Positions 24,272-42,879 of a stretch of 64,000 nucleotides of DNA are shown one piece after another. The number at the start of each line of letters is the position of its first letter. The stretch's first letter is position 1. The translations under genes were made by a program, and so were the position numbers. The notes under the pieces were generated by a model that was not told where the DNA came from, did not search any database, and saw nothing but the letters and a program-made list of their open reading frames with translations. The stretch lies in contig JAZSEU010000030.1 in NCBI GenBank assembly GCA_045531855.1, forward strand, positions 1,412-65,411, in the 5' to 3' direction. The DNA is from Acutalibacteraceae bacterium. GTDB lineage: Bacteria > Bacillota > Clostridia > Oscillospirales > Acutalibacteraceae.

Positions 24272-24306
24272 AAAAACTGCAATCTTTAAGGGGTTGCAGT
24301 TTTTTA
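24272..24306 (+). terminator. Rho-independent terminator after the capsid gene
   Basis: actgcaa (24276-24282) pairs with ttgcagt (24294-24300), flanked by an A-run and a T-run. Confidence 0.75.
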
Positions 24307-24307
24307 A

Positions 24308-24342
24308 TTTGTCCGTTTATAAGAAGTTAATCGCTCTAAAAT
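24308..24342 (+). promoter_or_regulatory. Late promoter candidate B
   Basis: TTTGTCCGTTT (24308-24318), 18 nt, TAAAAT (24337-24342). Upstream of the portal gene. Confidence 0.5.
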
Positions 24343-24374
24343 CTAATTATAAAATACCGAAAAGGAGTATACAA

Positions 24375-26216
24375 ATGAGCGATTTCAAAATAAAGACAGA
24401 GCCGAAAACTATATTTGAAGAGTTTAAAAACGGCGACAATTACAAGCAAGGAATAGGCAAAAGAGGTCTTGCTGAACAGGGAAAGGTTAACGAGAGATTT
24501 TTTATCGGCGACCAATGGCACGGTGCTAACTGCGGAACGAACAGACCGCTTGTTAGAAGAAACATTATCAAGAGAATTGGGGAGTTTAAAATGTCCTCAA
24601 TTACTGCTGCACCGATAGCAGTTAACTATACGGCGGATGGAATACCCGATATAAACCTCGAGGATGAGAAAAAGGCTTATTCTAAGGAGCTTGCTGAGGG
24701 AGCAATGATGAGCGGTGAGGTTAGCAATGCGGAAATTGCGACCATAATGCAATGCTTATCGGAATACTTCAAAATAACGGGAGAGAGACTAAAACTCGAT
24801 ATGTTGAAAGAACAGGCACTTAGAAACTGCTATATAAGCGGTACGGGGCTTTTGTATACATACTGGGACCCAAATATTAAGACGGGACTTTATGCTGATG
24901 AGGCTAAGCAAATGCCTATAAACGGAGATATAAATTGCGAGGTTTTAGAGGTTGAGAATGTTGTTTTCGGAGAGCCCAATAATGACGATATTCAAACTCA
25001 GCCCTATATTATCATTTCTCGAAGAAGACATATAGGAGAGGTTATCAGAGAGGCAAAAAGAAACGGAGTATCCGCTGAGGATATTGCCGATATCAAGCCC
25101 GACAATGTTGATTATATGCAGACCGAGGGAGAGCTTGGCGAATACGAGCCGAATGACAGCAACAGAGTTACAACTCTTACGAAGTTTTATAAGAAATGGG
25201 CTAAGGATGGAAACAGTTTCAAAATTTTCTGCACTGAGGTTGCGGAAAAGGTTGTTATAAGAAAGCCTTTTGATATCGGAATTACTCATTATCCTTTTGC
25301 AATAATGCCTTGGGAACGCCGCCGCTCTTGTATTTACGGTGAGAGTGAGGTTACTCATTTGGTACCGAATCAGATAGCAATAAACCGCTGTCTTACTGCG
25401 GCAGTTTGGGGAATTATCTCAACGGGAATGCCGATAATGATTGTTAACGGTGATGTTGTAACCGAAAGAATTACTAATGAACCCGGTCAAGTTATAAAGG
25501 TTTATGGAAGCAATGAGGATGTTGCAGGTGCTATAAGACATATTCAACCGCCTGTGTTCCAAAGCCAATACTTCCAGAGTGTTAACGAGATGGCGAGCAA
25601 TACCCTTAACGATTCAGGAGCAAATGATGCGGCACTCGGAAATCTAAGACCCGACAATGCTTCAGCCATAATCCAGATGAGAGAAGCCGCTATGCAACCA
25701 ATGCAGATTTATATGAACCGCTTTTATGATTTCATAGAACAGCTTGCGAGAATTTGGGCGGACTTTTGGATAAATCTTTATGGAAAGAGAATGCTCCAAA
25801 CCGTTACAAAAGAGGGAACTAATTATATACATTTTGATGGCGAGAGATATAAAAATCTTGTTATAACCGCAAGAATAGACGTTGGTGCTTCAACCCTTTG
25901 GAGCGAGGCGGTTGTTATCTCTACTCTTGATAATCTGCTTGAGAGACAAATGATAACCTTTGAGCAGTATCTTGACCGACTTCCCTCAGGAATTATTCCC
26001 GATGTTACAGGGCTTAAGGAAGACCTGCAGTTGCAGAGTCAACAGGCAGAACAAGAGGCGGGCCTTTCTGATGAAGCGGTGCTGAGAGACTTTGCACAGC
26101 AGCAACCCGAACTCTATAAACAGTTTGAGAGAATGCCTGCTTCTCAGCAGATGGCATTGATGGCAAAAATAAAAGGAGCTTATAACGGCGGTGAAGCTCA
26201 GGAGGTAATAGAATGA
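24375..26216 (+). CDS. Portal protein candidate
   Basis: Start MSDFKIKTEP at ATG 24375 after AAAGGAG. 613 aa. Size and acidic C-terminus fit a portal. No other portal-sized candidate lies near terL. Confidence 0.55.
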   Translation: MSDFKIKTEPKTIFEEFKNGDNYKQGIGKRGLAEQGKVNERFFIGDQWHGANCGTNRPLVRRNIIKRIGEFKMSSITAAPIAVNYTADGIPDINLEDEKKAYSKELAEGAMMSGEVSNAEIATIMQCLSEYFKITGERLKLDMLKEQALRNCYISGTGLLYTYWDPNIKTGLYADEAKQMPINGDINCEVLEVENVVFGEPNNDDIQTQPYIIISRRRHIGEVIREAKRNGVSAEDIADIKPDNVDYMQTEGELGEYEPNDSNRVTTLTKFYKKWAKDGNSFKIFCTEVAEKVVIRKPFDIGITHYPFAIMPWERRRSCIYGESEVTHLVPNQIAINRCLTAAVWGIISTGMPIMIVNGDVVTERITNEPGQVIKVYGSNEDVAGAIRHIQPPVFQSQYFQSVNEMASNTLNDSGANDAALGNLRPDNASAIIQMREAAMQPMQIYMNRFYDFIEQLARIWADFWINLYGKRMLQTVTKEGTNYIHFDGERYKNLVITARIDVGASTLWSEAVVISTLDNLLERQMITFEQYLDRLPSGIIPDVTGLKEDLQLQSQQAEQEAGLSDEAVLRDFAQQQPELYKQFERMPASQQMALMAKIKGAYNGGEAQEVIE

Positions 26217-26581
26217 CAGGACAACAGATTTTAAAGCTTGCAACGGATTTACTCGGATATACAAATGCTAACGGCAATCTGCAGCTGAGTGCAAGAATTA
26301 TGGGTAAAGCGGTTGTTAATATAAACCTTATATATAGCGATTTATGGCGAATTTGTTATGATACAGAATTTGAACCTATAAGTAATATTCACGGTGAAAT
26401 AAAGCTTCCTGAAAGGGTGCTTAATGACATTATGCCTTACGGTGTTGCGATGATGTTAGCACAGAGCGAGAGTGATGGCGACCAGCAACAGCTTTATTCT
26501 GTTCTATATAACCGCAAAAGAACCTCTTTATCGAAGAAAGAGGGTATTGAGGATGTATTGCCGAGGTGTTATGACTTATGA
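26213..26581 (+). CDS. Head-tail adaptor/connector candidate
   Basis: 122 aa, ATGA overlap with the portal gene. Call rests on position only. Confidence 0.4.
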   Translation: MTGQQILKLATDLLGYTNANGNLQLSARIMGKAVVNINLIYSDLWRICYDTEFEPISNIHGEIKLPERVLNDIMPYGVAMMLAQSESDGDQQQLYSVLYNRKRTSLSKKEGIEDVLPRCYDL

Positions 26582-28797
26582 GATTTCCTTCTATAAACAA
26601 ACAGGGTAAGCGAAGGGTTAATATCCCGCAGTTTACAGGCGGAATTAACCTTCGTGATAACCCGACACAATGCAATGATAATCAGTTGACAGAGCTTGTT
26701 AATATGTGGTTCAAGGATGGAACGCTGAGAACAAGACCGGGACTGATAAGGCTCAACGATAATGAGGTTTTTGAAACTGAGTCGCCTTCGCTTACGGGAG
26801 AGTATAGTGTAGAGGGCAAGGCACATAACATCTTGAATGATGATAAAAGGCTTATAAGCATTAAGGAAACAAGGATTTCAACTATAGGAGAAGCCTTAAA
26901 AACTTCTTTTTATGCTATACATTTCTTTTGGTGTAATAAAGATGGTGCTGTGAAGCTTCCGAGTATCAGATACGATTATCAGGAAAATAATTTTGTTAAT
27001 AAAGACCTTGAGAACTATTTTGTTGTAAATCAAAACGGAACACTTTATTGCTTTGTTAAAACGAGTGCTGATAGAAGTGTTTATATGCTCGAAAAGAGCA
27101 AAGAAAAATGGCAGAAGCTTGGCGATGAGGATATGTATATACCAACAGTTATGACTCATTGCAAAGTGAATCATAAACTAAAAGATGGACATGCCTATGA
27201 AAAAGGTCATACAGGAACGATGCTTGAGGGCTATAACCTTTTAAGCAATTATTACAAAATGGTTTATTCAACCGTTAATACCGATGCGGATATTTCAGAT
27301 GATGCCTATCCTATGGTTTATTCGGTTGAGGAAAGCACCTACTATAACAAATATAAGGGTTATGAGGTTAAGGCTGAGTATATCGATAAGAAAGGTAATG
27401 TACATAAACACAGTGTAACGCTTCAGGGTGTTCTTGAGAATGGTTGGTTTGTATGGGAGAAAGAGGCTTCAACCGATGGCTTGGTTATGGGAGTTTGCAG
27501 CCGACAGATACGTTTTGCTAAGCCCGGAGTGGATAGTGCGGCCACCCTCACAAGAGCTGATTATGTTGAGGACAACCTCACTATTACAGTTCCCTTTATA
27601 CCTGATAACAGAGAAGAAGAGCTTGATAAAATTTTTTGTATGACCGAATGTGAATGGTTCGGAGGAAGCTCTGCAGGACTTACAGGCGGAACGAGACTGT
27701 TTTTAGGCAGTAATAAGAAGCATGAGGAAAAGGCACTTGTTATATGGTCGGGTCTTAACAAACCTCTTTATTTCCCCGAAAACTCCTATTTTTATGTTGG
27801 TGATACTTCACAGAGGATTACAGGTTTTGGCAAACAGTCTAATATGCTTGTGATTTTCAAAGAGAATGAAACCTGGTATACGCAATATCATCAGAACACA
27901 AGTATAACAGGGGAAGACTTGGCAAGTCAGAGAGTCATTGATTTGCAGGCAAGTGCAGTGTATTTTCCGCTTGTTCAAATCAATTCTTCGATAGGTTGTT
28001 CTTATCCTGGAACGATTCAGCTTTGCAGAAACCGCCTTGTTTGGCTCGGAAGCGGAAATAAGGTTTACAGCCTTGTTTCTAATAATCAGTATAATGAGCG
28101 AAGCGTTTATGTTGTTTCTGAAATGATAGAACGTAGGTTTAAAAAGGAAAATCTTTCGAAAAGTATAGCTTATGACTGGAACGGATATTATTGCCTTAAA
28201 TGCGGCGGTGAAATGTTCCTTATGGACTATAACAGTTATGGTTATATTTATGTTTCGAGCCATTCGAAGACAGAGGATGCGAATATAAGAATACCGTGGT
28301 ATTATTGGGAGTTTCCGAATGCAGAGGATGAAGGAACAGCAGATATTATGTTCCTTTGCGGTGATGAACTTCTTAATATGAAATTCAAAGCTTCGGGAAG
28401 CGATATAACCTGTTCTGCATTTGAGTTCAGAAGTGGAATAGGAAACGATATTCTTGTTGACGGTACCAAAAAAGAAATTAAAAGTTTAATTGAAACCAAG
28501 TTCTTTGATTTCGGTGAGCCTAATTTCTATAAAAATATAGGCTCTGTAGCACTCTCTTTGGGTTATAACGGCGGAGGCGAGATAAGTGTTGCCTTTATAA
28601 CCGATGGCGGAGAAGAGCAAACAGGACTTGTTTTAGAGGAAGCGGCGGATGAACGCTCGGCGGGATTTACCAAGAGCAAGATATTAACCCCCGCAATTTG
28701 TTCGGCACTCAGGTTTGGAATAAGGCTTGAAAGTCAGAGCGATATCTTAATTGATGGATTAACAATAGATTATAGAGTTACAGGGAGGGCAAGATAA
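26578..28797 (+). CDS. Large virion structural protein (tail/nozzle candidate)
   Basis: 739 aa, translationally coupled. No enzymatic motif recognised. Confidence 0.45.
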   Translation: MRFPSINKQGKRRVNIPQFTGGINLRDNPTQCNDNQLTELVNMWFKDGTLRTRPGLIRLNDNEVFETESPSLTGEYSVEGKAHNILNDDKRLISIKETRISTIGEALKTSFYAIHFFWCNKDGAVKLPSIRYDYQENNFVNKDLENYFVVNQNGTLYCFVKTSADRSVYMLEKSKEKWQKLGDEDMYIPTVMTHCKVNHKLKDGHAYEKGHTGTMLEGYNLLSNYYKMVYSTVNTDADISDDAYPMVYSVEESTYYNKYKGYEVKAEYIDKKGNVHKHSVTLQGVLENGWFVWEKEASTDGLVMGVCSRQIRFAKPGVDSAATLTRADYVEDNLTITVPFIPDNREEELDKIFCMTECEWFGGSSAGLTGGTRLFLGSNKKHEEKALVIWSGLNKPLYFPENSYFYVGDTSQRITGFGKQSNMLVIFKENETWYTQYHQNTSITGEDLASQRVIDLQASAVYFPLVQINSSIGCSYPGTIQLCRNRLVWLGSGNKVYSLVSNNQYNERSVYVVSEMIERRFKKENLSKSIAYDWNGYYCLKCGGEMFLMDYNSYGYIYVSSHSKTEDANIRIPWYYWEFPNAEDEGTADIMFLCGDELLNMKFKASGSDITCSAFEFRSGIGNDILVDGTKKEIKSLIETKFFDFGEPNFYKNIGSVALSLGYNGGGEISVAFITDGGEEQTGLVLEEAADERSAGFTKSKILTPAICSALRFGIRLESQSDILIDGLTIDYRVTGRAR

Positions 28798-29819
28798 TGG
28801 CAACTAAACCAAGAGATTGGAATGTCATACATTCTGAAATTGAAAATTCACTTGCTGCTCAAAAGCAGGCGGATAAGGATGCACAAAATAAAATATTTGA
28901 TACAAATAAAAAGACCATAACCGATAATTATACGCAGTCAATAAAAGATGGTGAGGCTGAGTATGAGGACGATTATAGAGAAAACGCTGTTCAGAAAAAG
29001 GTTAACGAGTTTTACATATCCGAAGAGATGGCTAATATGGGGCTTGCTAATTCGGGGTTCAATCGCACACAAATTACGGCAAATCAGTTATCCTATGCCA
29101 ATAATAAGGCGGAAATCGACAGGAAGAGACAGAGTATGGTTGATAGTCTCAAAATAGAAATGACTAATAAGCTTACCGAAAACGAAAACGAAAGAACAGG
29201 TGCTTTAGCAGGTATTGATTCGAGTTACAAGCAAACTGCAATCGAAAAAACAAATGAGATTTATGGAGATGAGTGGGATGCTTATAATAAAGAACGAGAA
29301 GCGGAAATTAAAGCTGAAACGGAGAGGCAGAAGGCGTATTACAGTGCCTTGGAAAAACAAGCAGAAGCAGCAAAAAACGCCAAGCCCCAAAATATTATAA
29401 ACAGCAAGGAAGGGTTTTTAAATCGTGAGGCTATGAAGGAGGGCGGCTTTACTGCAAACAACATCAAAGTTAAAGAAAACGGAAATGGAACAGTAACTTA
29501 TTTTGATATAGATACAGGGTATTCTTCTACATTTGCGAAAAATGAAAATCCGTTTACTGGACGTGCGCATAAAAACGCCCAATATGGAACATTCGATAAC
29601 GGGTATCAGCCAAACAACATGGGTAAAGATGAAAGCGGAAAAATATTAAAGTTAAGAGCTGCAAAGAGAGTTGATACAGGCGAAACTGCAACACTTCCTA
29701 AAAATGGACAGCAACAAACAGTATGGACCGTTGATGGCAAAACATTCTATCTTTGGAATGGAGCTATCAACGATTATGAAAAATTAAACCCCAACAAAGC
29801 AAAAGGAGTGTTCAAGTAG
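28797..29819 (+). CDS. Virion-associated coiled-coil protein
   Basis: 340 aa. The central region is charged and helical. Confidence 0.45.
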   Translation: MATKPRDWNVIHSEIENSLAAQKQADKDAQNKIFDTNKKTITDNYTQSIKDGEAEYEDDYRENAVQKKVNEFYISEEMANMGLANSGFNRTQITANQLSYANNKAEIDRKRQSMVDSLKIEMTNKLTENENERTGALAGIDSSYKQTAIEKTNEIYGDEWDAYNKEREAEIKAETERQKAYYSALEKQAEAAKNAKPQNIINSKEGFLNREAMKEGGFTANNIKVKENGNGTVTYFDIDTGYSSTFAKNENPFTGRAHKNAQYGTFDNGYQPNNMGKDESGKILKLRAAKRVDTGETATLPKNGQQQTVWTVDGKTFYLWNGAINDYEKLNPNKAKGVFK

Positions 29820-32800
29820 TGAATGTAATCGACTTCGATATTAAAAAAATAGGAAGCAAAAGCGGAGAGAATACACAAAAAACGGTGGATTTCGATATAT
29901 CACAAGTGGGAGGTAAAGGGGATGTTGACCCGATTACAGTACTAAAAAACCTTGCTTCTCCTTCTTCCTCCTCTCAATCCCCCCTTCGCAAGTATAGTTC
30001 GATAGATTGGGAAAACAATCCCTTAAATAAAATCGACAAAGCCAAATCAACTATTCCTTCGGTGTATTACGATGAGAGTTATGTTGAAACGAAAAAGAAT
30101 AACGCTGAAATTGCAAAATTGAAGGCTGATATGGAAGCGGCAAAATATAATTTCCAACACGCCAAAAACGATTATGGTTTGGTGCAGCAAGGAATGGAAT
30201 ATTTGAGAAATTTCGATGTTGTTGATACATATTCGGGTGAAAAATATTCAGCATATAAAACATGGCAAGAAGCGGCCGAAAAATACTATACCACAAAATA
30301 CGGAAACAAAGAAGCTCAACAAATTTTGTTAAATCAATTACAGGCCACAAAAAAAGAAGTTCCTGAAAATAAAAAAGAAACGGTAGACACTACCATAAAA
30401 GAATTACAAAACTCTTTATATGGAGATTATGTTATTGATGATTTTGTAAGTAATAGCATAATGGCAGGTGTGTCTGGATATGATGCAGGATTTTCTAAAT
30501 CTCTGGATGCAACATTAGGTAAGGCTTTAAATTGGTTGGGATGGAAAAATAATCCTATAAATAAACTAAATAGTTGGATATCATCGGGTAATGAATATTA
30601 TGCGGAGAATGCCGCAAATGCAGCGGCTGCGATGGGTGGAGGTATTTATAATTACGTAAACGCCTTTAATCAAGGAATTATAGGTATGTTGCCAGATATT
30701 GTAATTGCGATGGCATCGGGTAAAGGTTTAGCCAATACTCCAACAGCTCTTAAAAAGATAGCTAATATTGCAACAAATCAAGCCTCGATGGGAGCTATTG
30801 CGAAATTTGGAGATAATATGACAAGGGCGGTTTCCAACACTTTTTCAACCGCAGTTAAAAATCCTTTATATTGGACTTCTATGACAAGAACTTTTGGTAA
30901 CGATTATGAGGAGGCTAAAAAGGGTGGGGCTTCAGAAGGAGCAGCTTATTTATATGCTACACTTACTTCTTCAATGAATGCCTTAGTAGAAATCGGCGGT
31001 GGTGTGCAAGTTCTTCCTGATAAACTTAAAAATTTAACTAAACCGCAAATATTAGAATTAATTATAAGTGCCGTTGAAGAAGGTAATGAAGAGGTAATCC
31101 AAAGTTTAATTAGCGATATTAACGCAAAACTTATATATGACCCCAATAAAGAAATGACTTCCGCAAAAGATTTAGCTTTTGAATGGGCCGTTGGTTTTGG
31201 TGTTGGTGTTGCCGGAGGCTCAGGAACTGTAATTTTAGATAATATAGTTAATAATCGTTCCGAATATGCTAAGGTAGGTGAAATTGTTAGAAAAGATAGC
31301 AACAATGTTGAAGGCGTTATAGAATATGCTTCAAAATCTTCCAATGAAAGCATTAGAGATATAGCGACCAAAAATATAAGTAATCCTTCGAAAATTTCCA
31401 ATACGGATTTAGGTGTTTTGTATTCTTATGTAATGCAAGATATTGATACAGCGTTTAATTCTGCAACAACCATTGAAAATCTTTCAGAAGCGTTAACTAG
31501 TTTGAATACTTCAAATGAAACTGTTAAAAATTTAGCGTTTTCAAGATATGTTAAAAGAGCTATGGAATTAGGCGAAGATATAAAAAATATCGAAGCAAGT
31601 AAGAATGAATTTATAGTTCCCTCAAATACCGCTCATGCTTCTTTAACTGAAGCCGAGCAGGAAATATTAAACACCCCCGATGAGCAGTTGACACCTGTGC
31701 AGAGAGCAATTAAACAAAATATTCAAGAAAGACATTCTTCAGTGTTGCGCACGGGTGCAAATAATAATGGCACAAATGTGAAACTTGAAACTATGAAACA
31801 ACAAAAAAACACCGCCCAGGATAGCGATGCAAATACTGAAAATATTGTTGACCTTTCAGGAGATAATAATTTGTCAAAACTGGTTGAAAATTTGCATGGT
31901 GCAGAAAAATACAAAAAAATCAGAGATTATATATTTGGCATTTTGGGTGGCCGCAACATAAAACTTAGTGATGGCAAAAATGCTATTGTTGATAAAAGCG
32001 ATGCTTTGCATATAGCAAATAAATCAGGTTCCGAAAAAACTTCACAAATATCGAAGATTAAAGAGTTAATAGAAAAAGCTAGGCTTTATGCGGAAGATAA
32101 TAATGTTCAACATAATAAATTCAACTATTTTTGTTATTATATTGTTGATATAAAATACGGAAAAGAGATTATCCCTATTTATATTAATGTTGGCAAAGGT
32201 AAAAACGATGGTAAATATCATATTTATGATATTACTAAAAAAATAAGAGATACCGCCCATCGAGTTAACGATGTGGAGCGCCCCAAACCAAACGAGGGCT
32301 ACGCTCTAGAAAACGATATCTCTAACAATAGATTAACACAAAAACCACCTATTGTCAATAATATTATATCCAACGAAGGCGATAATAATTCCTCCACCCC
32401 CTCCGATATTATCCTTCCGGAAAATATAAAGGAGATATCGATAGCAAATAAAAACAAACAGCGACATCATACAACCCTGAAAGAGCAAAACTATATTATA
32501 GGCATAGGTAAGGCTTTGGGCAGAACGGTTGTTTTTGAAAATGTTGTTGATAAACTTAGAGCCGAAGGAATAGACCTTAAAGGGCAAATACCTGATGGAT
32601 ATATAGATAACAATAATGTTATTCATATGAATTTTACGGTTATAGACCCATTGACTTTTATTTTCAAGCATGAGCTCACTCATTTCGGAGAAGGTACCGA
32701 AGCATATAACAAGTTTGTTGATGCGGTTAGAAAATCAGATGCTTTTAAAAACTGGCTTATAGAGAAAACGGGTCTTAATGCTGAAGATAATACCGTAGAA

Positions 32801-35800
32801 GTTCTTATTGCTGCAGCAAGACAAAGCGTTATGGATAGCCGTACTGGTGATGCGGCTGTTGATGTGGACGCGGCAATGGCCGAGGTTATAGCCGATTTTG
32901 TTGGAGATTGTTTATTTACTGATAACGGCTCAGGCCTGGAGTCAATGCTCAGCAACCTTAATGTTAAGGAACGAAACGCTGTTATTCAATATATACTCGA
33001 CTTTTTATCTTACATAAAGAAAAAACTCGCAGGATATAAAGATATAGAGTTTGAAATCTCCCGACTTGAAGATAGCTTTAATCGAATGCTATCAGAAGCA
33101 ACTCAGGTAAAGGCTGCGGGCGACTTTACGAGCGAAGGAAATAAGTATACATTTGCTCGGTCTTATGATACCGAAGCTATATCCAAAGCTGAGGATATGG
33201 AGAGTCAAGGTGCAAAACATCCTGAGATTTGGGAAGAAACAGGGCTGATGCGTGATGGAGGAGGAACTTGGGTTTATGAAATAGATGATTCCGAGATGGA
33301 GTTTTATCCTGAAGGCAATGCGAAAAAAGAGCTTGATGCGGATTATTACGAATATCTTTCATTAGCAAAACTGAAAAGGCGAACTCCTGAAAAAAGCAAA
33401 AGATTTATGGAGTTATATTCTAAATACGGCAACATTTTTTTGAAAAAATATACGGTTGCAGATTTTGTTAAGCACGATAAGTTGTTTAAAGCATATCCGC
33501 AACTAAAAGATATAAAAATAGAGTTTAGAGATTTGGGCGAAAATGGTTATGGCGGCTATTATTCTCATTCGGAGAAAAAAATAGTTATCAATCAGCATTC
33601 GTTAAATTCTAAAGACCCGAATAGAATAAAAAAGACTTTGATTCACGAGATGCAGCACGCGGTTCAATATATTGATGGTCGTGAAGAAGGTTCTAATAAG
33701 GAATTTTGGAATGCACGTATTTTGAACGGCGAAAGAATGCCTATAAATTATAGAACCGGAAGACCATATACGTCCGAAGAAACATATGATGCCTATTTGG
33801 ATACTGCAGGGGAAATGGAAGCCAGAGAGGCCGCAGAAAGATTCGATTATACTGAAGATGAGCGAGGATATAGCTTTTTTGCTCCCGATATAGATTATAA
33901 TAATTCTGTAAGGATGAGCGAGTTTAAAAAGGAAACGGTTCCTACCGCTATGTCAGAAGGATATATTGAAGCTGTAAATTCAAAGGATGTAAATACTGCT
34001 CAGCGTTTAGTTGACCAAGCCGCTAAGAAATCGGGTTATACCGAGAGACTTTATCATCAAACGGGAAAAGAATTTACGGAATTTAATACCAACAACCAAA
34101 TTGCCGGTAAATATGATTGGGAGTTGCCTACAGGGACTTTTTTAAAGCCGTCTAATAACGATATTGGTTTATCCGGCAAAAAGCAACTGGAGCTTTATGC
34201 AAAGTTTGAAAATGCATTGGTATTCAAGAATAGAAGTGAAGCTCGAAAGTTTTGGGTTGATAATATTCCCGAATATAAGAAGATAGCTCAAGAACTCACA
34301 AACATAGATTCTCAATACCGCAGAAAAACCGATGAGGCTATGGATAATGTTCGCCAGTATTTGAAACAATGGAAACAAAAAAATCCCACTACTGACAGTA
34401 GAGAGATTTATAGTGATTCCGAATATCAAAGGCTCAATGATTTAGAGGATAAAATCGTTGATGAATGGGAAGAAAAGAGCAATGAGGCAAGCTTAAGGGC
34501 TAAGGAGTTGCTTGATGATTTCATTTCGAACAGTGATTTTGATGGTGTTGTTGTAGAGAATGATGAAGGCTCATATGGTAGGAGTACAAAGACATATATT
34601 GTTTTTGATTCGAGTCAACTAAAGGATGCTTCGCCTATTACCTATGACGATAATGGTAATGTTATACCTTTGTCAGCAAGATTTGATTCTGACAAGAAGG
34701 ATATTAGATATTCGATACCTCGTGGGACAACGCATACTGGCGAGGATTTAAAAGATACTCCCGATACATTGAAACCAAAATCGAATAGAGAATGGTCTGC
34801 TTTTAATCGCTCATTCGCAAATCAAACAAATGGATTGAAAAGTGGAGCGAAAAAGAGTATAATAATTACAACTCAAAGCAATGTATATTTTGTTTTTGCG
34901 GATGGATACATGAGCGGCGAAATTGTAAAAAAAATAAATATTGATAAATTAAAGAAAGGTCAAGAGTTTTATGACAGTTTGGGACGGGCAGAAACTAATC
35001 ATAGCAAAGATGAAATCATTGGGAATAGACAAGGAAACTATAGTGGTAGCTATGTTTTTGGAAACCAAGAAACAGATACTAACTATGATGAATTGGATGA
35101 ATTCATTGACAAACATCCCGAGTGGTTCCGAAATAAAAGAGAAAGTTATGCAAATTATAAAAGAAGAGAAATAGATAAAAATAAATATTCTATACCAAGC
35201 GAAGCTAATAGTTTGCTCGATAGATATGAAAACGGAGAAATCAGTCGAGAGGATTATCAGCAACAATTGGATGAGCTTTGGAAGTCGGCTAATGAGGAAT
35301 ATGGAACTATAAAGCAAGGCGAAAATGCTAAAACGCCATTAGCTATTCCTAAAGCGGTTGAAGATGGTATGCCTACTAAGCAATTCATAAGAACTGTTAT
35401 AGAAACAGGTAAGCTTACTTCTGAGATGATAGAAGATATTGAGCAAGAAGTTTTATTAGGTGATACATATTTTTATAAAGTTGTTTCCGATGAAAGTGCC
35501 AAGAACAAGGCAGAAAAAAGTTTTGAAAAGGGAATAGCTGAAGAAAGCTGGAATAAGGCAATATCTACAAAGGCGATTTCAAAAGAGGATATTGCTATCG
35601 GTGAAAAACTTTTATTGCAGGCGATAGAAGATAATAACAGGTTGGGGGTTATCGAATTATCTGCCGAACTTGCCGATGCATTCACTCGTTCAGGACAAGT
35701 TGTCCAGGCGGCGAGAATGCTCAAAAAAATGTCAGGTGTGGGAAGGCTGGTTGCAGCACAAAAAAATGTAAACACGATAAACAAATCTTTACAAGAAAAG

Positions 35801-37690
35801 TATGGAGATAAGTCGCCAACGGTGAAGCTTAATCCGTTACTTGCGGAGCAGTTAGCAAAAACAAAAACCACCCGAGAAATTGAAATGGTTTACGGTGAGG
35901 TATTAAGTGATATTGCTTCTCAAGTCCCTGCGACTTGGCTTGATAAATTAAATGCTTGGCGGTATTTCGCTATGTTATCCAATCCGAGAACCCATATAAG
36001 AAACCTTGTTAGCAATACGGTGTTTACACCGAGCATTATGTTGAAAAGATTTATCGCTACAGGTGCGGAACATATACTTATTAAAGATGCTGATAAAAGA
36101 ACAAAAGCGGTTTTCATCAAAAAAGAGTATATGGATTTTGCTAAAAAGGATATTAAAAATCGTGAAGTTAAGAATATGCTTCAAGGAAAAGGACAACTGG
36201 ATGATAAAGCCATCATAGAAGAGCTAAGGAAAACTTTTGAAACCAAATGGCTTGAATCACTTACAAAGGGCAATGGCAATCTTTTGGAAGCTGAAGATAT
36301 GTGGTTTAAATCACATCATTATAAAGTTGCCTTTGCAAGTTTTTTACAGGCCCGAAAAGTAAATTTGAAAAGTGTTAGCGAAACCACTTTACAGGAAGCT
36401 AGAGAATATGCAGTTAATGAAGCGAAGAAATCTACTTTCCAAGATTTCAGTAAACTTGCGAATTGGCTCAACAATATAAAAAATCCTGTTGGTAGAATTG
36501 CTGTCGAGGGTGTGCTACCCTTTAAGAGAACCCCGATTAACATTATTAAGCGTGGGGTTGAATATAGTCCTATAGGACTTATGGAAAAACTCACTGTGGG
36601 ATTATTGGATGTTCGGAAAGGAAAGATTACTGTTTCGGAATTTTGCGATGGTTTAGCTGCAGGTATTGCAGGTACGGGCTTGATGGCTATTGGTTGGGTT
36701 TCGGCATCTGCAGGTATGGTTGTTGGCAGTTCCGGAGATGATGAAGAAGATAAGTTTAAGCGACTTAACGGCGAACAAGAGTATGCTGTTCAAATTTTTG
36801 ATAAATCATATACTGTTGACTGGGCTGCACCGGCTGCGATACCCTTTTTCATAGGGGTGGAGCTTGCGGGCGAAATTGATGAGAATGATGGTTTTGAATT
36901 TAAAGATTTAACAGATAGCTTTTGGAATGCCTTGGAGCCTATTACAAATCTTTCTATGCTTTCCGGAGTGCAGGGACTGATAGAGGCTGTAAAATATGAG
37001 GATAGCAGTAAGACAATAGGAACGATGATAGGCGATGTTGCTACTAATTTTGCGATGCAATTGATTCCTTCTTCATTTGGTGCAATCGCAAGAACGATTG
37101 ATGAAACCCAACGAACTTGGTATACTGACAAGAACTCATCCTTAGACTCATTCTCACAATCGATAATAAATAATGTAAAATCTAAGGTTCCTGGTTTGTC
37201 ATATACACAAATACCAAAAATCGATGCATGGGGTAGAGAAGCAAGTCGAGGCTCGGTTGGAGAAAGGATAGCGGAAAACTTTATTTCTCCCGGATACTAT
37301 TCGCAAATTGATGTTTCGGATGCTGAAGAAGAACTTAAGAAAATTTATAGGAGCACTGGAGAAAATGTTTTTCCAAAAACAGCTGCAAAATATTTCCAAG
37401 TCAACGGTGAAACCAAGCATTTAACTGCAGATGAATATGTTGAATATGCAAAGGCGAAAGGTGAGTACTCTTTTGATTATATCGAGGAGTTTGTTAACAG
37501 TAGTACTTTCACTAAACTCACCGACAATGAGAAAGCGGAGGTTATTAAAAACCTTTATGAATATGCCAATGCAAAAGCAAAGGCTAAAGTTTCTGATTAT
37601 GATATTATGAAGCAGTATAAAACTGTAACTAATTGGGAACGAGACGGAAAATCGGCAGTTATTTACTACATATCCAAAGCTATAAACTAA
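29819..37690 (+). CDS. Giant (2623-aa) multidomain virion/ejection protein, polyvalent-protein-like, with two zincin HExxH motifs and hydrophobic Gly-rich segments
   Basis: Uninterrupted 7.9-kb ORF. GTG start overlaps the previous TAG. HELTH at 32669-32683 and HEMQH at 33644-33658. Predicted membrane-like segments near both ends. Confidence 0.85.
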   Translation: MNVIDFDIKKIGSKSGENTQKTVDFDISQVGGKGDVDPITVLKNLASPSSSSQSPLRKYSSIDWENNPLNKIDKAKSTIPSVYYDESYVETKKNNAEIAKLKADMEAAKYNFQHAKNDYGLVQQGMEYLRNFDVVDTYSGEKYSAYKTWQEAAEKYYTTKYGNKEAQQILLNQLQATKKEVPENKKETVDTTIKELQNSLYGDYVIDDFVSNSIMAGVSGYDAGFSKSLDATLGKALNWLGWKNNPINKLNSWISSGNEYYAENAANAAAAMGGGIYNYVNAFNQGIIGMLPDIVIAMASGKGLANTPTALKKIANIATNQASMGAIAKFGDNMTRAVSNTFSTAVKNPLYWTSMTRTFGNDYEEAKKGGASEGAAYLYATLTSSMNALVEIGGGVQVLPDKLKNLTKPQILELIISAVEEGNEEVIQSLISDINAKLIYDPNKEMTSAKDLAFEWAVGFGVGVAGGSGTVILDNIVNNRSEYAKVGEIVRKDSNNVEGVIEYASKSSNESIRDIATKNISNPSKISNTDLGVLYSYVMQDIDTAFNSATTIENLSEALTSLNTSNETVKNLAFSRYVKRAMELGEDIKNIEASKNEFIVPSNTAHASLTEAEQEILNTPDEQLTPVQRAIKQNIQERHSSVLRTGANNNGTNVKLETMKQQKNTAQDSDANTENIVDLSGDNNLSKLVENLHGAEKYKKIRDYIFGILGGRNIKLSDGKNAIVDKSDALHIANKSGSEKTSQISKIKELIEKARLYAEDNNVQHNKFNYFCYYIVDIKYGKEIIPIYINVGKGKNDGKYHIYDITKKIRDTAHRVNDVERPKPNEGYALENDISNNRLTQKPPIVNNIISNEGDNNSSTPSDIILPENIKEISIANKNKQRHHTTLKEQNYIIGIGKALGRTVVFENVVDKLRAEGIDLKGQIPDGYIDNNNVIHMNFTVIDPLTFIFKHELTHFGEGTEAYNKFVDAVRKSDAFKNWLIEKTGLNAEDNTVEVLIAAARQSVMDSRTGDAAVDVDAAMAEVIADFVGDCLFTDNGSGLESMLSNLNVKERNAVIQYILDFLSYIKKKLAGYKDIEFEISRLEDSFNRMLSEATQVKAAGDFTSEGNKYTFARSYDTEAISKAEDMESQGAKHPEIWEETGLMRDGGGTWVYEIDDSEMEFYPEGNAKKELDADYYEYLSLAKLKRRTPEKSKRFMELYSKYGNIFLKKYTVADFVKHDKLFKAYPQLKDIKIEFRDLGENGYGGYYSHSEKKIVINQHSLNSKDPNRIKKTLIHEMQHAVQYIDGREEGSNKEFWNARILNGERMPINYRTGRPYTSEETYDAYLDTAGEMEAREAAERFDYTEDERGYSFFAPDIDYNNSVRMSEFKKETVPTAMSEGYIEAVNSKDVNTAQRLVDQAAKKSGYTERLYHQTGKEFTEFNTNNQIAGKYDWELPTGTFLKPSNNDIGLSGKKQLELYAKFENALVFKNRSEARKFWVDNIPEYKKIAQELTNIDSQYRRKTDEAMDNVRQYLKQWKQKNPTTDSREIYSDSEYQRLNDLEDKIVDEWEEKSNEASLRAKELLDDFISNSDFDGVVVENDEGSYGRSTKTYIVFDSSQLKDASPITYDDNGNVIPLSARFDSDKKDIRYSIPRGTTHTGEDLKDTPDTLKPKSNREWSAFNRSFANQTNGLKSGAKKSIIITTQSNVYFVFADGYMSGEIVKKINIDKLKKGQEFYDSLGRAETNHSKDEIIGNRQGNYSGSYVFGNQETDTNYDELDEFIDKHPEWFRNKRESYANYKRREIDKNKYSIPSEANSLLDRYENGEISREDYQQQLDELWKSANEEYGTIKQGENAKTPLAIPKAVEDGMPTKQFIRTVIETGKLTSEMIEDIEQEVLLGDTYFYKVVSDESAKNKAEKSFEKGIAEESWNKAISTKAISKEDIAIGEKLLLQAIEDNNRLGVIELSAELADAFTRSGQVVQAARMLKKMSGVGRLVAAQKNVNTINKSLQEKYGDKSPTVKLNPLLAEQLAKTKTTREIEMVYGEVLSDIASQVPATWLDKLNAWRYFAMLSNPRTHIRNLVSNTVFTPSIMLKRFIATGAEHILIKDADKRTKAVFIKKEYMDFAKKDIKNREVKNMLQGKGQLDDKAIIEELRKTFETKWLESLTKGNGNLLEAEDMWFKSHHYKVAFASFLQARKVNLKSVSETTLQEAREYAVNEAKKSTFQDFSKLANWLNNIKNPVGRIAVEGVLPFKRTPINIIKRGVEYSPIGLMEKLTVGLLDVRKGKITVSEFCDGLAAGIAGTGLMAIGWVSASAGMVVGSSGDDEEDKFKRLNGEQEYAVQIFDKSYTVDWAAPAAIPFFIGVELAGEIDENDGFEFKDLTDSFWNALEPITNLSMLSGVQGLIEAVKYEDSSKTIGTMIGDVATNFAMQLIPSSFGAIARTIDETQRTWYTDKNSSLDSFSQSIINNVKSKVPGLSYTQIPKIDAWGREASRGSVGERIAENFISPGYYSQIDVSDAEEELKKIYRSTGENVFPKTAAKYFQVNGETKHLTADEYVEYAKAKGEYSFDYIEEFVNSSTFTKLTDNEKAEVIKNLYEYANAKAKAKVSDYDIMKQYKTVTNWERDGKSAVIYYISKAIN

Positions 37691-37728: not shown

Positions 37729-37995
37729 CTAATCTTGTATTGGTTCAGCTTCAAAGAGCCTGCCACACATTTCTTCAAAGCTAATCAATTCTTCCTCTGG
37801 AGTTTTTAAAGCTATTGAAAAATTTGATAATTTTGAATATGGGGCATACATTATGCCTCGTTCGATTTTGCTTATTGTTGAACCACTTTTATAACCGACT
37901 TTTTGAGCAAGTTCTTGTTGAGACATACCTAGTTCTATTCGCCGACGTTTAATAGCTTCACGGAATAATTCTATATTTTTATGTATTATTATCAT
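37729..37995 (-). CDS. XRE-family HTH protein encoded antisense within the late region
   Basis: 88 aa with LGMSQQELAQKVGYKSGSTISKIERG. Confidence 0.75.
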   Translation of the reverse strand: MIIIHKNIELFREAIKRRRIELGMSQQELAQKVGYKSGSTISKIERGIMYAPYSKLSNFSIALKTPEEELISFEEMCGRLFEAEPIQD

Positions 37996-39360: not shown

Positions 39361-40665
39361 ATGGGAAACGGAGCGACAAGAATAATTGCAAAAGCAAGGT
39401 TTAAATATAGAAGTGATACAAAAGAAAATTGGGAAAAGGAAAACCCTGTTTTGCTCTCGGGGGAAATCGGTGTTGTTACCGATGGAACCGAAACTGAAAA
39501 GGTTAAATGGGGAGACGGTGTAACTCCTTGGAATAGTCTTGGTTGGTGGAAAGGAGAAAAGGGTGAAACTGGAGAGACAGGTCCACAAGGCGAAAAAGGT
39601 GATAAAGGGGACCAAGGAATACAAGGCATTCAAGGACCAAAAGGAGATAAGGGAGATAAGGGCGATACCGGAGCAGCAGGAGTTGACGGCAAGGACGGTA
39701 TTAACGGAACAAACGGCACTGATGGTGTGAGTATTACAAAAACCGAAATTAACTCAAATGGAGAGCTTATAATTACCCTTTCGGATAACACTGTATCCAA
39801 TCTCGGTGTTGTAGTTGGAGAAAAGGGAGAACAAGGTATTCAGGGTGTACCGGGGGAGCCTGGAAAGGACGCAGTTGTTGAAAATACATACAACCCTGAA
39901 AGTGAAAACGCACAAAGCGGAAAAGCGGTAGCAGAAGCAATAGAATTACAAAATGTAAATTTCAACAACAACTTTGCAAATGCAATTAAATCATCTAAAA
40001 AAGGCGAGATAATTACAGTAGATGATGTTTCACCTTTAGAACACGATTTAAAAATTAAACTAACAAGTGATACTATTACTGATTTTTCTACGGTCAAAGT
40101 TAGTAGATATGGGAAAAATTTATGTCCTATTACTGAAAGAGGTGCGGATTATTCTCAACCTATTATAGATATCACAGATGTTTGCCCGAAAGGTGTGCCA
40201 GTAACGGTTCGGGGCTACATTGTGCGAAGTGTAGAAACGGAACCGGCACGATTAAGAATAGATTATGTTGTTGATGGCAAAGTAAATTATTTCTTTTCGA
40301 ACGTTTGGTCTACAGGCAGCGGATATAGTTGGCTAACATTTACCGTGCCGACAAATGCAACTTCGGTCAAAATTACTGTTCAATACTTAAGTACAACTAC
40401 CGGCACTATTTCGTGTAGTAAAATGCAACTCGAAATTGGAGAAACATATACGGAATATGAACCTTATACAGAACCGCAATTTGCAATTGCAAACGCAGAT
40501 GGAATAGTTGAAGGGTTAAAAAGTGTTTCACCAAATATGACTTTAATTCCTGATACGGATAACGTTGTTATTGAGGTTGAATATATAGCAGATACCAAGC
40601 TTTATATTGACAATAAATTCAAAGAACTTAAATCAGAGCTTCAAGCTTTAATTTTGGAGGGTTAA
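39361..40665 (+). CDS. Collagen-like repeat tail fibre protein
   Basis: 434 aa with a long G-X-Y tract (GEKGETGETGPQGEKGDKGDQGIQG...) and a second short tract, followed by a globular C-terminal domain. Confidence 0.75.
   Translation: MGNGATRIIAKARFKYRSDTKENWEKENPVLLSGEIGVVTDGTETEKVKWGDGVTPWNSLGWWKGEKGETGETGPQGEKGDKGDQGIQGIQGPKGDKGDKGDTGAAGVDGKDGINGTNGTDGVSITKTEINSNGELIITLSDNTVSNLGVVVGEKGEQGIQGVPGEPGKDAVVENTYNPESENAQSGKAVAEAIELQNVNFNNNFANAIKSSKKGEIITVDDVSPLEHDLKIKLTSDTITDFSTVKVSRYGKNLCPITERGADYSQPIIDITDVCPKGVPVTVRGYIVRSVETEPARLRIDYVVDGKVNYFFSNVWSTGSGYSWLTFTVPTNATSVKITVQYLSTTTGTISCSKMQLEIGETYTEYEPYTEPQFAIANADGIVEGLKSVSPNMTLIPDTDNVVIEVEYIADTKLYIDNKFKELKSELQALILEG
39553..39726 (+). repeat. Collagen-like G-X-Y triplet repeat region (coding)
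   Basis: 58 consecutive residues follow G-X-Y periodicity. This also generates spurious antisense ORFs. Confidence 0.85.
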
Positions 40666-41158: not shown

Positions 41159-41950
41159 ATGTCAGTAAAAACATATTCTTTAAAAACAGACGGCAACAAA
41201 TATTGTTCCGTACATACACAAGTAAAAGAGATGAGAAGTAAATGCGGTGCAGATAAAATCTTAATTGATACCGCATTAATGGAAATGGTAGAGAAACTCT
41301 TTACAAAATTAAGATGTTCAAAATATATCATTTCAAGCGGTTATCGCACCGCTTCGCACGATAAAGCCGTTGGCGGTAGCGGAAAAGGTCAGCATACAAC
41401 AGGCAGAGCCGTAGATGCGTGTTTCTATTGGAAAGACGGTTCTATCATCCCTGCTCAAATCGTTTGTTGTGTAGCACAGGATTTAGGCTTTAAGGGAATT
41501 GCTAATATCTCTAAGAATTATCGTTATGTTCATTTAGATATGAGAGCAAGCGGTACATATTACGGTGATGAGGTTAAAAGTTATAACACCGTTACAACTG
41601 ATTTCCGCAAATACTTCGGTGTTAGCGATGCCGATATTGCAAAATATACAGGCGAGAAACCCAAAAAGTCGGTTTCCGAAATCGCAAAAGAGGTTCTTGA
41701 GGGCAAGTGGGGAAACGGAGCGGACCGCAAGAAAAAGCTCACAGCGGCGGGCTATGATTACAACAAGGTACAAGCAGAGGTAAATAATCTTGTCAATGGC
41801 AAATCCTCACCGAAAAAGAAGTCTAACGAAGAAATTGCAAAGGAAGTTATTGCAGGCAAATGGGGCAATGGAGCAGACCGTAAGAAAAGATTAACCGCTG
41901 CAGGATATAATTACTCTACAATTCAGAAGATTGTTAATAAACTTACATAA
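41159..41950 (+). CDS. Endolysin: peptidase M15 (D-Ala-D-Ala carboxypeptidase-like) domain plus two CW_7-type cell-wall-binding repeats
   Basis: SGYRT..H..GRAVD...VHLD zinc-site pattern. Tandem repeats EIAKEVLEGKWGNGADRKKKLTAAGYDYNKVQAEVN and EIAKEVIAGKWGNGADRKKRLTAAGYNYSTIQKIVN. Confidence 0.85.
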   Translation: MSVKTYSLKTDGNKYCSVHTQVKEMRSKCGADKILIDTALMEMVEKLFTKLRCSKYIISSGYRTASHDKAVGGSGKGQHTTGRAVDACFYWKDGSIIPAQIVCCVAQDLGFKGIANISKNYRYVHLDMRASGTYYGDEVKSYNTVTTDFRKYFGVSDADIAKYTGEKPKKSVSEIAKEVLEGKWGNGADRKKKLTAAGYDYNKVQAEVNNLVNGKSSPKKKSNEEIAKEVIAGKWGNGADRKKRLTAAGYNYSTIQKIVNKLT

Positions 41951-42174: not shown

Positions 42175-42209
42175 ACCGCCTCGTTCAAAAAAGAATGAGG
42201 CGGTTATTT
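42175..42209. terminator. Bidirectional rho-independent terminator
   Basis: aaccgcctcgttc pairs with gaatgaggcggtt, between the holin gene and the convergent membrane-protein gene. Confidence 0.8.
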
Positions 42210-42879
42210 AATTTGATTCGGTTTTTATTGAGTTTGTAATATAAAAGACGGTTCCGATTAAGGTGGCAATTACTTCAACGAAGGGTAATATTAGTTTAGA
42301 GGGTTTGCTCGGGTTTGTTTCTAAAACCTTTTCGTTATAAGTTTTGTAAGGTGTGATTTTAATTTTCCATTCTCTATCTCTTTGGTCTGAAAATGTTTCT
42401 GCAGTATCATAATCTGTGTAGCAATCTTCGAAATATAAGTAACCGCCGTTTTTAAAATAAACATTGTTGATATAATAAATGGTTTTTGTTTTTGTTTTGC
42501 CTTCCTCGTATTCGTAAGTATCAGAAATTTTTTCAATTTTTGCAGGTAGTGTATAGGTTTTGCCTTTTTCATTTGTTGCTTTAACATAATAACAATATGT
42601 ACCTTCGGGCATTACGCGTATATCATTGCATCCGAGAGAGATAACTAATTGATTACTCGAAAAAAGTATTAAAAAACATATGAATAAACCTATAATAGAA
42701 GATAAAAAGGCTTTATTTTTTAGGTTTTTAATGTTTCCGTAAAATAAATCTAAAGCAGGTGTATTAGATTGCTTTTTTATTGAGCTTATAACTTCTATTG
42801 CCGCAAATAGTGCATAAAAAAACGATATTATAAGGAACGGCCAAGCTGAACAAAAACGATATATTGAATATAAATCCAT
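42208..42879 (-). CDS. Membrane protein of unknown function (moron at the att-proximal prophage end)
   Basis: 223 aa. Hydrophobic segments at the N-terminus, around residues 55-80 and at the C-terminus. Opposite strand to the late genes. Confidence 0.6.
   Translation of the reverse strand: MDLYSIYRFCSAWPFLIISFFYALFAAIEVISSIKKQSNTPALDLFYGNIKNLKNKAFLSSIIGLFICFLILFSSNQLVISLGCNDIRVMPEGTYCYYVKATNEKGKTYTLPAKIEKISDTYEYEEGKTKTKTIYYINNVYFKNGGYLYFEDCYTDYDTAETFSDQRDREWKIKITPYKTYNEKVLETNPSKPSKLILPFVEVIATLIGTVFYITNSIKTESN

Follow-up and report, generated by a model that had tools for sequence, protein, structure and literature searches.

Background

Polyvalent proteins were defined by Iyer, Burroughs, Anand, de Souza and Aravind (2017, J Bacteriol, PMC5512222; our references to this article concern parts of its text), and zincins were proposed there to process them. 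A second system that is close to the present one is gp47 of phi24B, a podovirus carrying Shiga toxin (Stx). This protein of 2,811 amino acids (aa) has LPD5, LPD1, LPD38 and MuF_C domains, was found to be abundant in virions by mass spectrometry, is invisible in the reconstruction, and was proposed to be a capsid-packaged ejection protein (bioRxiv 10.64898/2026.04.10.717836). In the present study, we analyzed 64,000 nucleotides of DNA from an Acutalibacteraceae bacterium (assembly GCA_045531855.1, contig JAZSEU010000030.1, positions 1,412 to 65,411 of the forward strand); this whole stretch is called the window, and all positions refer to it. A prophage in the window has, among its late virion genes, one giant open reading frame (ORF) of 7,872 nt. 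Our results show that the product of the giant gene is a polyvalent protein of the phage type, belonging to a temperate podovirus-like phage of a gut Firmicute, and that it is most likely packaged and ejected. The concept is already in the literature, and the giant protein is a clean and instructive example that is not new in kind. Giant polyvalent proteins make up a fifth of such small prophage genomes, yet almost none have been studied experimentally.

Results and discussion

The giant gene and its modules

The giant gene and the features within it are as follows (residues are those of the product).

29819..37690, plus strand: giant ORF, 7,872 nt, 2623 aa and stop, 295 kDa, isoelectric point 5.4, GTG start
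29803..29808, plus strand: Shine-Dalgarno sequence AAGGAG, 10 nt 5' of the GTG at 29819
29996..31768, plus strand: module A, residues ~60-650 with a conserved core at 201-497, all-helical, no Pfam match
30677..30733, plus strand: conserved Gly/Ala-rich hydrophobic helix of module A, residues 287-305, IIGMLPDIVIAMASGKGLA
31823..32422, plus strand: module B, LPD3-like, residues 669-868, Pfam 24.4 bits (cutoff 27) at residues 699-798
32489..33172, plus strand: module C, zincin-like metallopeptidase of the core (zincin 1), residues 891-1118
32669..32683, plus strand: HELTH motif of module C, residues 951-955
33155..33304, plus strand: LPD23 domain, residues 1113-1162, Pfam E 6e-12
33473..33706, plus strand: zincin 2, SprT-like (PF10263), residues 1219-1296, Pfam 28.3-31.8 bits, cutoff 25.6
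33644-33658, plus strand: HEMQH motif of zincin 2, residues 1276-1280
33986..34753, plus strand: module E, ART-PolyVal-like, residues 1390-1645, Pfam PF18760 25.7 bits, cutoff 31.2
34754..35164, plus strand: module G, orphan, residues 1646-1782, ending ...NKYSIP
35165..37687, plus strand: module F, residues 1783-2623 (~840 aa), conserved, C-terminal, mostly helical
36650..36724, plus strand: conserved hydrophobic helix of module F, residues 2278-2302, GLAAGIAGTGLMAIGWVSASAGMVV, followed by the acidic cluster GDDEED
29990-29998, 33143-33154, 33866-33877, 34706-34720 and 35183-35194, plus strand: punctuation strings at residues 58, 1109, 1350, 1630 and 1789

The frame at 29819..37690 is single and is translated from end to end without an internal stop, and the chance of 2623 stop-free codons at the local base composition is ~1e-93. 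Relatives of 2,200-2,600 aa in syntenic prophages are collinear with the giant protein over the full length, which argues against a frameshift artefact joining several genes, and the same module order is found in independent assemblies. Except for the unusual length, nothing favors an assembly or sequencing artefact that fused several genes into one frame, and its probability is practically negligible; the giant ORF is one real protein. The stop codon TAG (29817-29819) of the upstream 340-aa gene shares one base with the GTG start, and this overlap suggests that the giant ORF is translationally coupled to that gene. The initial annotation, made from the sequence alone, had described an uninterrupted ORF in the virion module, with HELTHFGEG at residues 951-959, LIHEMQHAVQ at residues 1274-1283 and two Gly/Ala-rich hydrophobic stretches, occupying about 22 percent of the prophage. 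All of these points hold: the gene lies in the late operon of a prophage of ~35 kb (~22%), both motifs are at these residues, and the two stretches are the only Kyte-Doolittle peaks above 1.4 in the protein (residues 287-305 and 2278-2302). Its reservation that errors or frameshifts might conceal several genes is answered by the stop-free frame and the collinear relatives.

Pfam scans of the whole protein and of segments gave two matches above threshold, LPD23 (residues 1113-1162, E 6e-12) and the SprT-like zincin (residues 1219-1296, 28-32 bits, cutoff 25.6), and two just below it, LPD3 (residues ~699-798, 24.4 vs 27 bits) and ART-PolyVal (residues ~1406-1605, 25.7 vs 31.2 bits). In the same scans, residues 1-660, 880-1110 and 1640-2623 had no match. 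Matches to PHROGs were only to families of unknown function, over zincin 2, and the NCBIfam scan gave nothing useful. When the whole protein was compared with 50,697 phage records by tblastn, one weak match was found, confined to the LPD23/zincin region. A large protein database contained 110 relatives, all of 1,459-4,464 aa and on phage-sized contigs of 10-60 kb, and their domain sets vary, with ART-PolyVal, LPD3, PBECR3/4, MuF_C, LPD38, DdrB-ParB and CHAP. The earlier assignment to the very large multidomain polyvalent proteins is thus borne out by the LPD23 and SprT-like domains above threshold and by the 110 giant relatives with polyvalent domains.

By local-similarity mapping and searches with our own module profiles, the giant protein is a mosaic of seven modules (A, B, C, D, E, G and F, in this order). 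Across the relatives, the order is always A, C, variable cassettes and F. A single-sequence genome scan found two loci in metagenome-assembled genomes of Acutalibacteraceae with the same synteny and with the architectures A-C-F and A-C-E-F. Since A, C and F are kept while the intervening cassettes vary across the relatives, we regard A, C and F as the core and B, D, E and G as cargo. A fixed core that flanks a swappable cargo bay lets the mechanical parts and the host-directed effector parts be predicted.

The two zincins

Module C has no Pfam peptidase family above threshold. Its HExxH is kept in all 15 sequences, and H951, E952, H955 and E1022 (15/15) alone are invariant among the alignment columns. 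As these are exactly H, E, H and E, module C has the gluzincin signature. In the AlphaFold2 (AF2) model (predicted local distance difference test score, pLDDT, 75-92), a helix at residues 887-899 is followed by strands at 903-907, 927-929 and 934-938, the helix with HExxH at 944-955, and a helix at 1016-1032 that bears E1022. The core of polyvalent-protein metallopeptidases (MPTases), as given in the part of the article considered here, consists of a helix, three strands, the HExxH helix and a later helix with Glu (PMC5512222), and the topology of module C is the same. Comparison of the module C profile with the Protein Data Bank (PDB) gave weak matches to the ArdC peptidase domain (6sna, E 0.17) and the minigluzincin MJ1213 (E 0.56); designed helical repeats, which are compositional artefacts, ranked top.

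The second HExxH is in module D (residues 1095-1313), together with LPD23. Among the 19 cassette homologs, 18 keep this motif (HExQH), and an acidic residue ten positions after it is also conserved. Zincin 2 is absent from the closest A-C-F relatives. The two zincins are not equivalent; zincin 1 belongs to the core, and zincin 2 is an optional cassette travelling with LPD23. The possibility, raised with the first description of the motifs, that HExxH is not conserved among homologs does not agree with these counts (15/15 for zincin 1 and 18/19 for zincin 2).

The C-terminal module F

No Pfam, PHROG-function or NCBIfam model matches module F. From an alignment of 21 sequences (A1), AF2 gave an almost wholly helical model (pLDDT 76; predicted template modelling score, pTM, 0.61). 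The C-terminal part has one conserved helix (residues 2278-2302), moderately hydrophobic (Kyte-Doolittle ~1.44), and its arrangement with the acidic cluster is also found in phi24B gp47, in the giant relative P0067 and in gp20 of the Bacillus phage Page. A fold search against predicted viral structures gave 53 matches at E<=1e-3. The best are C-terminal pieces of other giant phage proteins, with template modelling (TM) scores of 0.6-0.78. More distant matches (TM 0.33-0.46) are proteins annotated as internal virion proteins, of Pelagibacter phage Eyrgjafa (5e-13) and of the Synechococcus phages S-RIP1 (3e-12), S-CBP2 (2e-11) and S-CBP3 (1e-10), and a protein of cyanophage NATL2A-133 is also among the matches. 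The protein of the T7-like phage S-RIP1 (YP_007676442, 1,067 aa) is encoded by the last and largest gene of the internal-protein cluster, that is, at the gp16 position, and its weak alignment with module F covers PF.KTP.NI, the hydrophobic helix, the acidic patch and YS.-.-G..(S/Y)YT.DW..P.

With module F as query, an exhaustive profile search yielded 21,500 representative clusters at E<=1e-3; at the stricter limit of E<=1e-30, there were 8,726. Among the 150 best, the proteins have 1,116-3,844 aa and invariably carry the module at the C-terminus. Module F is a very common module without a curated family; it is abundant in gut metagenomes, and with a curated model, thousands of proteins could be annotated.

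Module F and the LPD38-type module are probably sisters that have diverged from each other, a relationship with moderate support. In hhalign, A1 and a five-sequence alignment of LPD38 modules shared 621 collinear columns (E 9.9e-5, probability 58%), and against single LPD38-type sequences A1 gave E 0.12. In P0067, an LPD38 core is combined with a tail of the F type, which has 28-35% identity to true F modules. The Pfam match to LPD38 is strong in phi24B gp47, P0067 and Page gp20.

At the start of module F (window 35219-35278, residues 1801-1820), there is a SHOCT-like motif, ENGEISREDYQQQLDEL, which scores 16-18 bits, below threshold, and is also present in the relatives P0001 and P0002.

The N-terminal modules and the cassettes

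Module A is found near the N-terminus in many giant relatives and has the consensus NPxYWTSxxxTxGNDYEEA..GAS...NA.VEIGGG...EEGxEEVxQ. Module B is 56% identical to an internal stretch of the relative P0038. The leader that precedes them (residues 1-58, 29819-29992) contains a short internal duplication, VIDFDIKKIGSKSG / TVDFDISQVGGKGD, and then a Ser-rich linker; it is not common to the closest relative, P0001.

The ART-like module E contains the elements YH(Q/G)T, LY and YDG...Q.K and a ~80-residue helical insert common to a subfamily of the relatives, and ends with ...DIRYSIP. The active site published for ART-PolyVal consists of H in strand 1, Y in strand 2 and D or E in strand 5 (PMC5512222, in the part used here). 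Module E keeps H1413 and Y1460, and at the position of the acid, where the relatives have D or E, it has K1591; L005, its closest relative (51% identity), has Glu there. Since K1591 replaces the catalytic acid, this ART cassette is probably inactive. Module G has no homolog among the 110 relatives and no family match.

Punctuation strings at the cassette ends

The giant protein contains six strings of the form [RKG]Y[ST][IFSV], and 0.75 are expected. Five of the six are at module borders (residues 58, 1109, 1350, 1630 and 1789). In the relatives, D[IV]R[YF]S follows ART cassettes and (K/R/Q)[YF]S[IV] occurs at the close of module C; in P0071, the strings are at residues 2086, 2279, 2522 and 3027. 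The motif is within 40 residues of 7 of 14 module C ends and of 29 of 56 module E ends, where random placement gives 1 and 3, respectively. It may be the cleavage site of the core zincin, or simply a conserved domain terminus. We found no mention of the motif in the part of PMC5512222 considered here.

The prophage and its late genes

Three genes upstream of the giant gene bear on the type of virion.

24294..26216, plus strand: portal of the podovirus type, Pfam SU10_portal 37.4 bits (cutoff 30), 31% identity to the portals of Page and Pascal
26578..28797, plus strand: 739-aa virion structural protein, phrog_3287, partly similar to a virion structural protein of the Bacillus podovirus Page
28797..29819, plus strand: 340-aa protein, no family match, immediate upstream partner coupled to the giant ORF

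One end of the prophage is marked by a tyrosine integrase gene (7374-8492, minus strand) and the other by the endolysin/holin region at ~42.2 kb. The late operon comprises the large terminase, a 262-aa protein, the major head protein, the portal, proteins of 122, 739 and 340 aa, the giant ORF, two fibre-like genes, small ORFs and an M15/CW_7 endolysin (41159-41950). Host genes resume with YloC and PriA (46.2 kb), and then with the priA...rsmB-rlmN...PASTA-kinase cluster typical of Firmicutes; the host DNA is present in gut and ruminant metagenomes. For both the portal and the 739-aa protein, the closest relatives among cultured phages are in Page, Pony, Pascal and related podoviruses of Bacillus megaterium, and no relative of solved structure was found by sequence for either protein.

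In L001, L004 and L010, too, the 739-aa gene precedes the giant gene as a conserved partner, and the 739-aa and 340-aa genes have homologous partners in four independent loci. In the closest relative, P0001, the gene order is as in the window, adjoining cotJA/cotJB. Three further diverse members are on prophage-like contigs of ~35-55 kb with matches to P22-type or SU10-type portals or adaptors and without a tape measure, and two of the three keep the order of ~720 aa, ~420 aa, giant gene, fibres and lysis genes. In P0003, the giant gene sits after the lysis genes, so that its position is not absolutely fixed.

From the SU10-type portal and the lack of a tape measure, the virion is predicted to be podovirus-like (short-tailed), in agreement with the ejection protein proposed in the initial annotation. 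The giant protein shares some properties with the tape measure proteins of long-tailed phages, which are also giant, helical proteins of the virion module with Gly/Ala-rich hydrophobic segments and occasional peptidase domains: its size, its mostly helical character, its two hydrophobic segments and the place of its gene upstream of tail-fibre genes would all fit. However, family scans of the phage module found no tape measure, tail tube, sheath, tail terminator or frameshifted chaperone gene, the portal is of the SU10/P22 type, and the nearest cultured phages are podoviruses. The relatives are also in modules free of a tape measure, and the fold matches of module F are to internal proteins of podoviruses. 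By our own estimate, 2623 aa at ~1.5 Å per residue would correspond to a tail of ~390 nm. A tape measure protein is thus a very unlikely identity for the giant protein.

ART, zincin and LPD domains occur in toxins and in the polyvalent proteins of conjugative elements too, and the gene might therefore encode a secreted or contact-dependent polymorphic toxin, or a conjugative-element polyvalent protein, that lies beside the prophage by chance. However, the gene is translationally coupled within the virion operon, flanked by portal-proximal structural genes on one side and tail fibres on the other, and the same synteny is found in four independent prophages. There are no type IV secretion system (T4SS), relaxase or secretion-system genes near it, and no signal peptide or immunity gene turned up, although no dedicated signal-peptide test was made. 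We consider such an origin highly improbable.

Some other genes of the prophage may be mentioned. Directly after the giant gene, inside the late operon, an 88-aa XRE-type helix-turn-helix protein is encoded antisense (37729-37995, minus strand). A small gene on the minus strand occupies the corresponding place in L001 and L003, and that of L001 is not homologous to the 88-aa protein. One fibre-like protein (39361-40665) has an Mtd_N (major tropism determinant N-terminal) domain and collagen repeats, and L010 has two Mtd_N genes. At the right border of the prophage are a 223-aa ORF without a family match (42208-42879, minus strand) and a CPBP/Rce1-like intramembrane protease (43274-44104), which might be of the moron or immunity type.

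Proposed packaging, ejection and processing

We infer packaging, ejection, channel formation, proteolysis and peptidase activity of the giant protein, and regard as fairly probable the whole picture in which a polyvalent protein is packed and ejected, modules F and A act at a membrane conduit, the cassettes are delivered, and a zincin releases them. The protein would be made late, coupled to the two conserved upstream virion genes, and a few copies would be packed inside the capsid. On infection, it would leave the capsid by way of the portal and short tail, either before the DNA or together with it. Module F, and perhaps module A, each with one conserved hydrophobic helix, may engage the cytoplasmic membrane and help to form or extend a conduit for the DNA, which in T7-like phages is the job of the internal virion proteins at the gp16 position. 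The cassettes would thereby be delivered into the cell and act early. The core zincin would most likely cut the polyprotein at linkers, for which the recurring [RK][YF]S strings at the cassette ends are candidate sites; alternatively, it may attack host targets. A packaged effector and a link to ejection proteins had both been proposed in the initial annotation. The former gains support, by analogy, from phi24B gp47, which was found in virions by proteomics, and the latter from the predicted fold of module F, which matches internal virion proteins of podoviruses.

Several results weigh against this picture. Module F has no match to solved T7 gp15 or gp16 or to any PDB structure, either by sequence profile or by Foldseek (best E 0.096), and its profile matches the S-RIP1 sequence weakly (E 0.03). 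Pfam LPD38 (PF18857) has no match in the giant protein even at E<=5 on segments, and the comparison of the F and LPD38 profiles reaches a probability of only 58%. When a 1,130-residue N-terminal model was searched against the PDB by Foldseek, only helical-repeat noise was obtained, so that the fold of zincin 1 is without a structural match. The hydrophobicity of the helices in A and F is only moderate (Kyte-Doolittle ~1.45). Neither phi24B gp47 nor Page gp20 contains the [RK][YF]S motif, which hence is not universal. Family scans found no peptidoglycan hydrolase (lysozyme, transglycosylase or CHAP) in the giant protein, in which it differs from T7 gp16; CHAP is carried by some of its relatives. 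Furthermore, the host is a monoderm, for which we know of no ejectosome model. A gp16-like module in a phage of such a host is mildly unexpected, and its role may differ where there is thick peptidoglycan and a single membrane without a periplasm.

The main rival to the ejection and conduit picture is that the giant protein is packaged cargo only, a capsid-internal effector polyprotein like the virion RNA polymerase (vRNAP) of N4 or the Dar proteins of P1, and that module F serves for capsid targeting or retention and not for membrane insertion. Polyvalent proteins were proposed to be delivered effectors (PMC5512222, in the part used here), and the zincin-containing region of N4 vRNAP is needed for encapsidation. 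The lack of a match of module F to solved ejectosome structures would also agree with this explanation, monoderm hosts have no periplasm to bridge, and the upstream 739-aa and 340-aa genes could encode the true conduit or nozzle proteins. However, the predicted fold of module F matches internal virion proteins at the gp16 position, and the hydrophobic helix and acidic cluster are kept across very distant members, including phi24B gp47. Module F is retained while all of the cargo varies, as expected of an essential mechanical part. We therefore consider the cargo-only explanation unlikely, although it is the strongest competitor of a conduit role for module F. As for an RNA polymerase of the N4 type itself, no RNA polymerase family or structure matched any segment, and this candidate was rejected.

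A more speculative extension of the ejection and conduit picture, and one that we put forward as doubtful, is that the core of A, zincin and F is a self-processing "ejectosome polyprotein" of the podoviruses of monoderm Firmicutes. Module F (>8,000 clusters) would be the Gram-positive counterpart of the gp16-position proteins, the zincin would cleave at [RK][YF]S, and the cassettes between the zincin and F would be freed as early effectors. If true, the view that ejection proteins are missing from Gram-positive podoviruses would no longer hold, and the cargo of thousands of gut prophages could be read by a general rule. Packaging and self-cleavage, if true, would explain protein delivery by short-tailed phages of Gram-positive bacteria, and laboratory studies could use the system as a natural chassis to bring protein cargo into gut Firmicutes.

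Comparison with known systems

Like the polyvalent proteins of Iyer et al. (2017), the giant protein joins many unrelated cassettes in one giant polypeptide that is encoded among late virion genes. It has LPD23, LPD3-like, ART-PolyVal-like and two zincin (MPTase) domains, and its cassettes are shuffled among the relatives. It is of the phage type, with the gene between portal-proximal structural genes and tail fibres and without T4SS genes. However, ~55% of it (A, G and F) matches no Pfam model from that study, its ART cassette is without the acid of strand 5, and we did not find a core of A, zincin and F with cargo between them described in the part of PMC5512222 considered here. With ArdC-type and SprT-like zincins, it shares HExxH and a downstream Glu, and zincin 2 passes the Pfam threshold for SprT-like; unlike ArdC-type zincins, neither of its zincins has a DNA-binding ArdC-N partner.

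In its giant size, its LPD domains, its two HExxH motifs and its origin from a temperate podovirus, phi24B gp47 (HM208303, 49148-57571; 2,807-2,811 aa) resembles the giant protein. Inspected by eye, the ~750 aa at its C-terminus have the landmarks of module F in the same order, namely 'NP.F..N', 'F.N..IQG', the hydrophobic helix and the acidic cluster; Pfam LPD38 is at residues 2490-2695. This C-terminal part is collinear with module F in the profile alignment described above (E 1e-4), at moderate probability. However, the two proteins have no similarity at the BLAST level, our module profiles give no significant match to gp47, and the LPD5, LPD1, MuF_C and clear LPD38 of gp47 have no match in the giant protein. 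To relate the giant protein to gp47 or to Page gp20 takes a comparison of profiles with profiles or of folds. Furthermore, the host of phi24B is Gram-negative, and the gp47 gene is at the far end of the genome and not between nozzle-region genes and fibres.

Like the genes at the gp16 position of T7-like phages, the giant gene is the largest and final one of its podovirus structural module ahead of the tail fibres. By predicted fold, module F resembles the proteins of the cyanophages and the pelagiphage (E 1e-10 to 5e-13), and a hydrophobic helix is conserved in the C-terminal part. T7 gp16 is also a precedent for an enzymatic domain, a transglycosylase, fused to an ejection protein. In its probable mode of action, the giant protein comes closest to a gp16-position ejection protein joined to effector cargo, which is also the role proposed for phi24B gp47. 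The giant protein differs in being two to three times larger and, with regard to T7 gp14, gp15 and gp16, in the lack of a match of module F to solved structures and in its monoderm host.

The Bacillus phage Page (Pagevirus, host B. megaterium) has the portal and virion structural protein that are among the nearest cultured relatives of those in the window. Its gp20 (YP_008770527, 1,679 aa) differs from the giant protein in that our module profiles match it not significantly, it has no HExxH, and its gene comes after the tail genes, adjoining the holin. However, gp20 is likewise very large, is encoded in the late operon, and has an LPD38 module (E 3e-27) at its C-terminus as well as the helix and acidic landmarks. 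It is annotated as a hypothetical protein (L008, 19786-24825), and would be a tractable experimental model for this class of proteins in a Gram-positive host.

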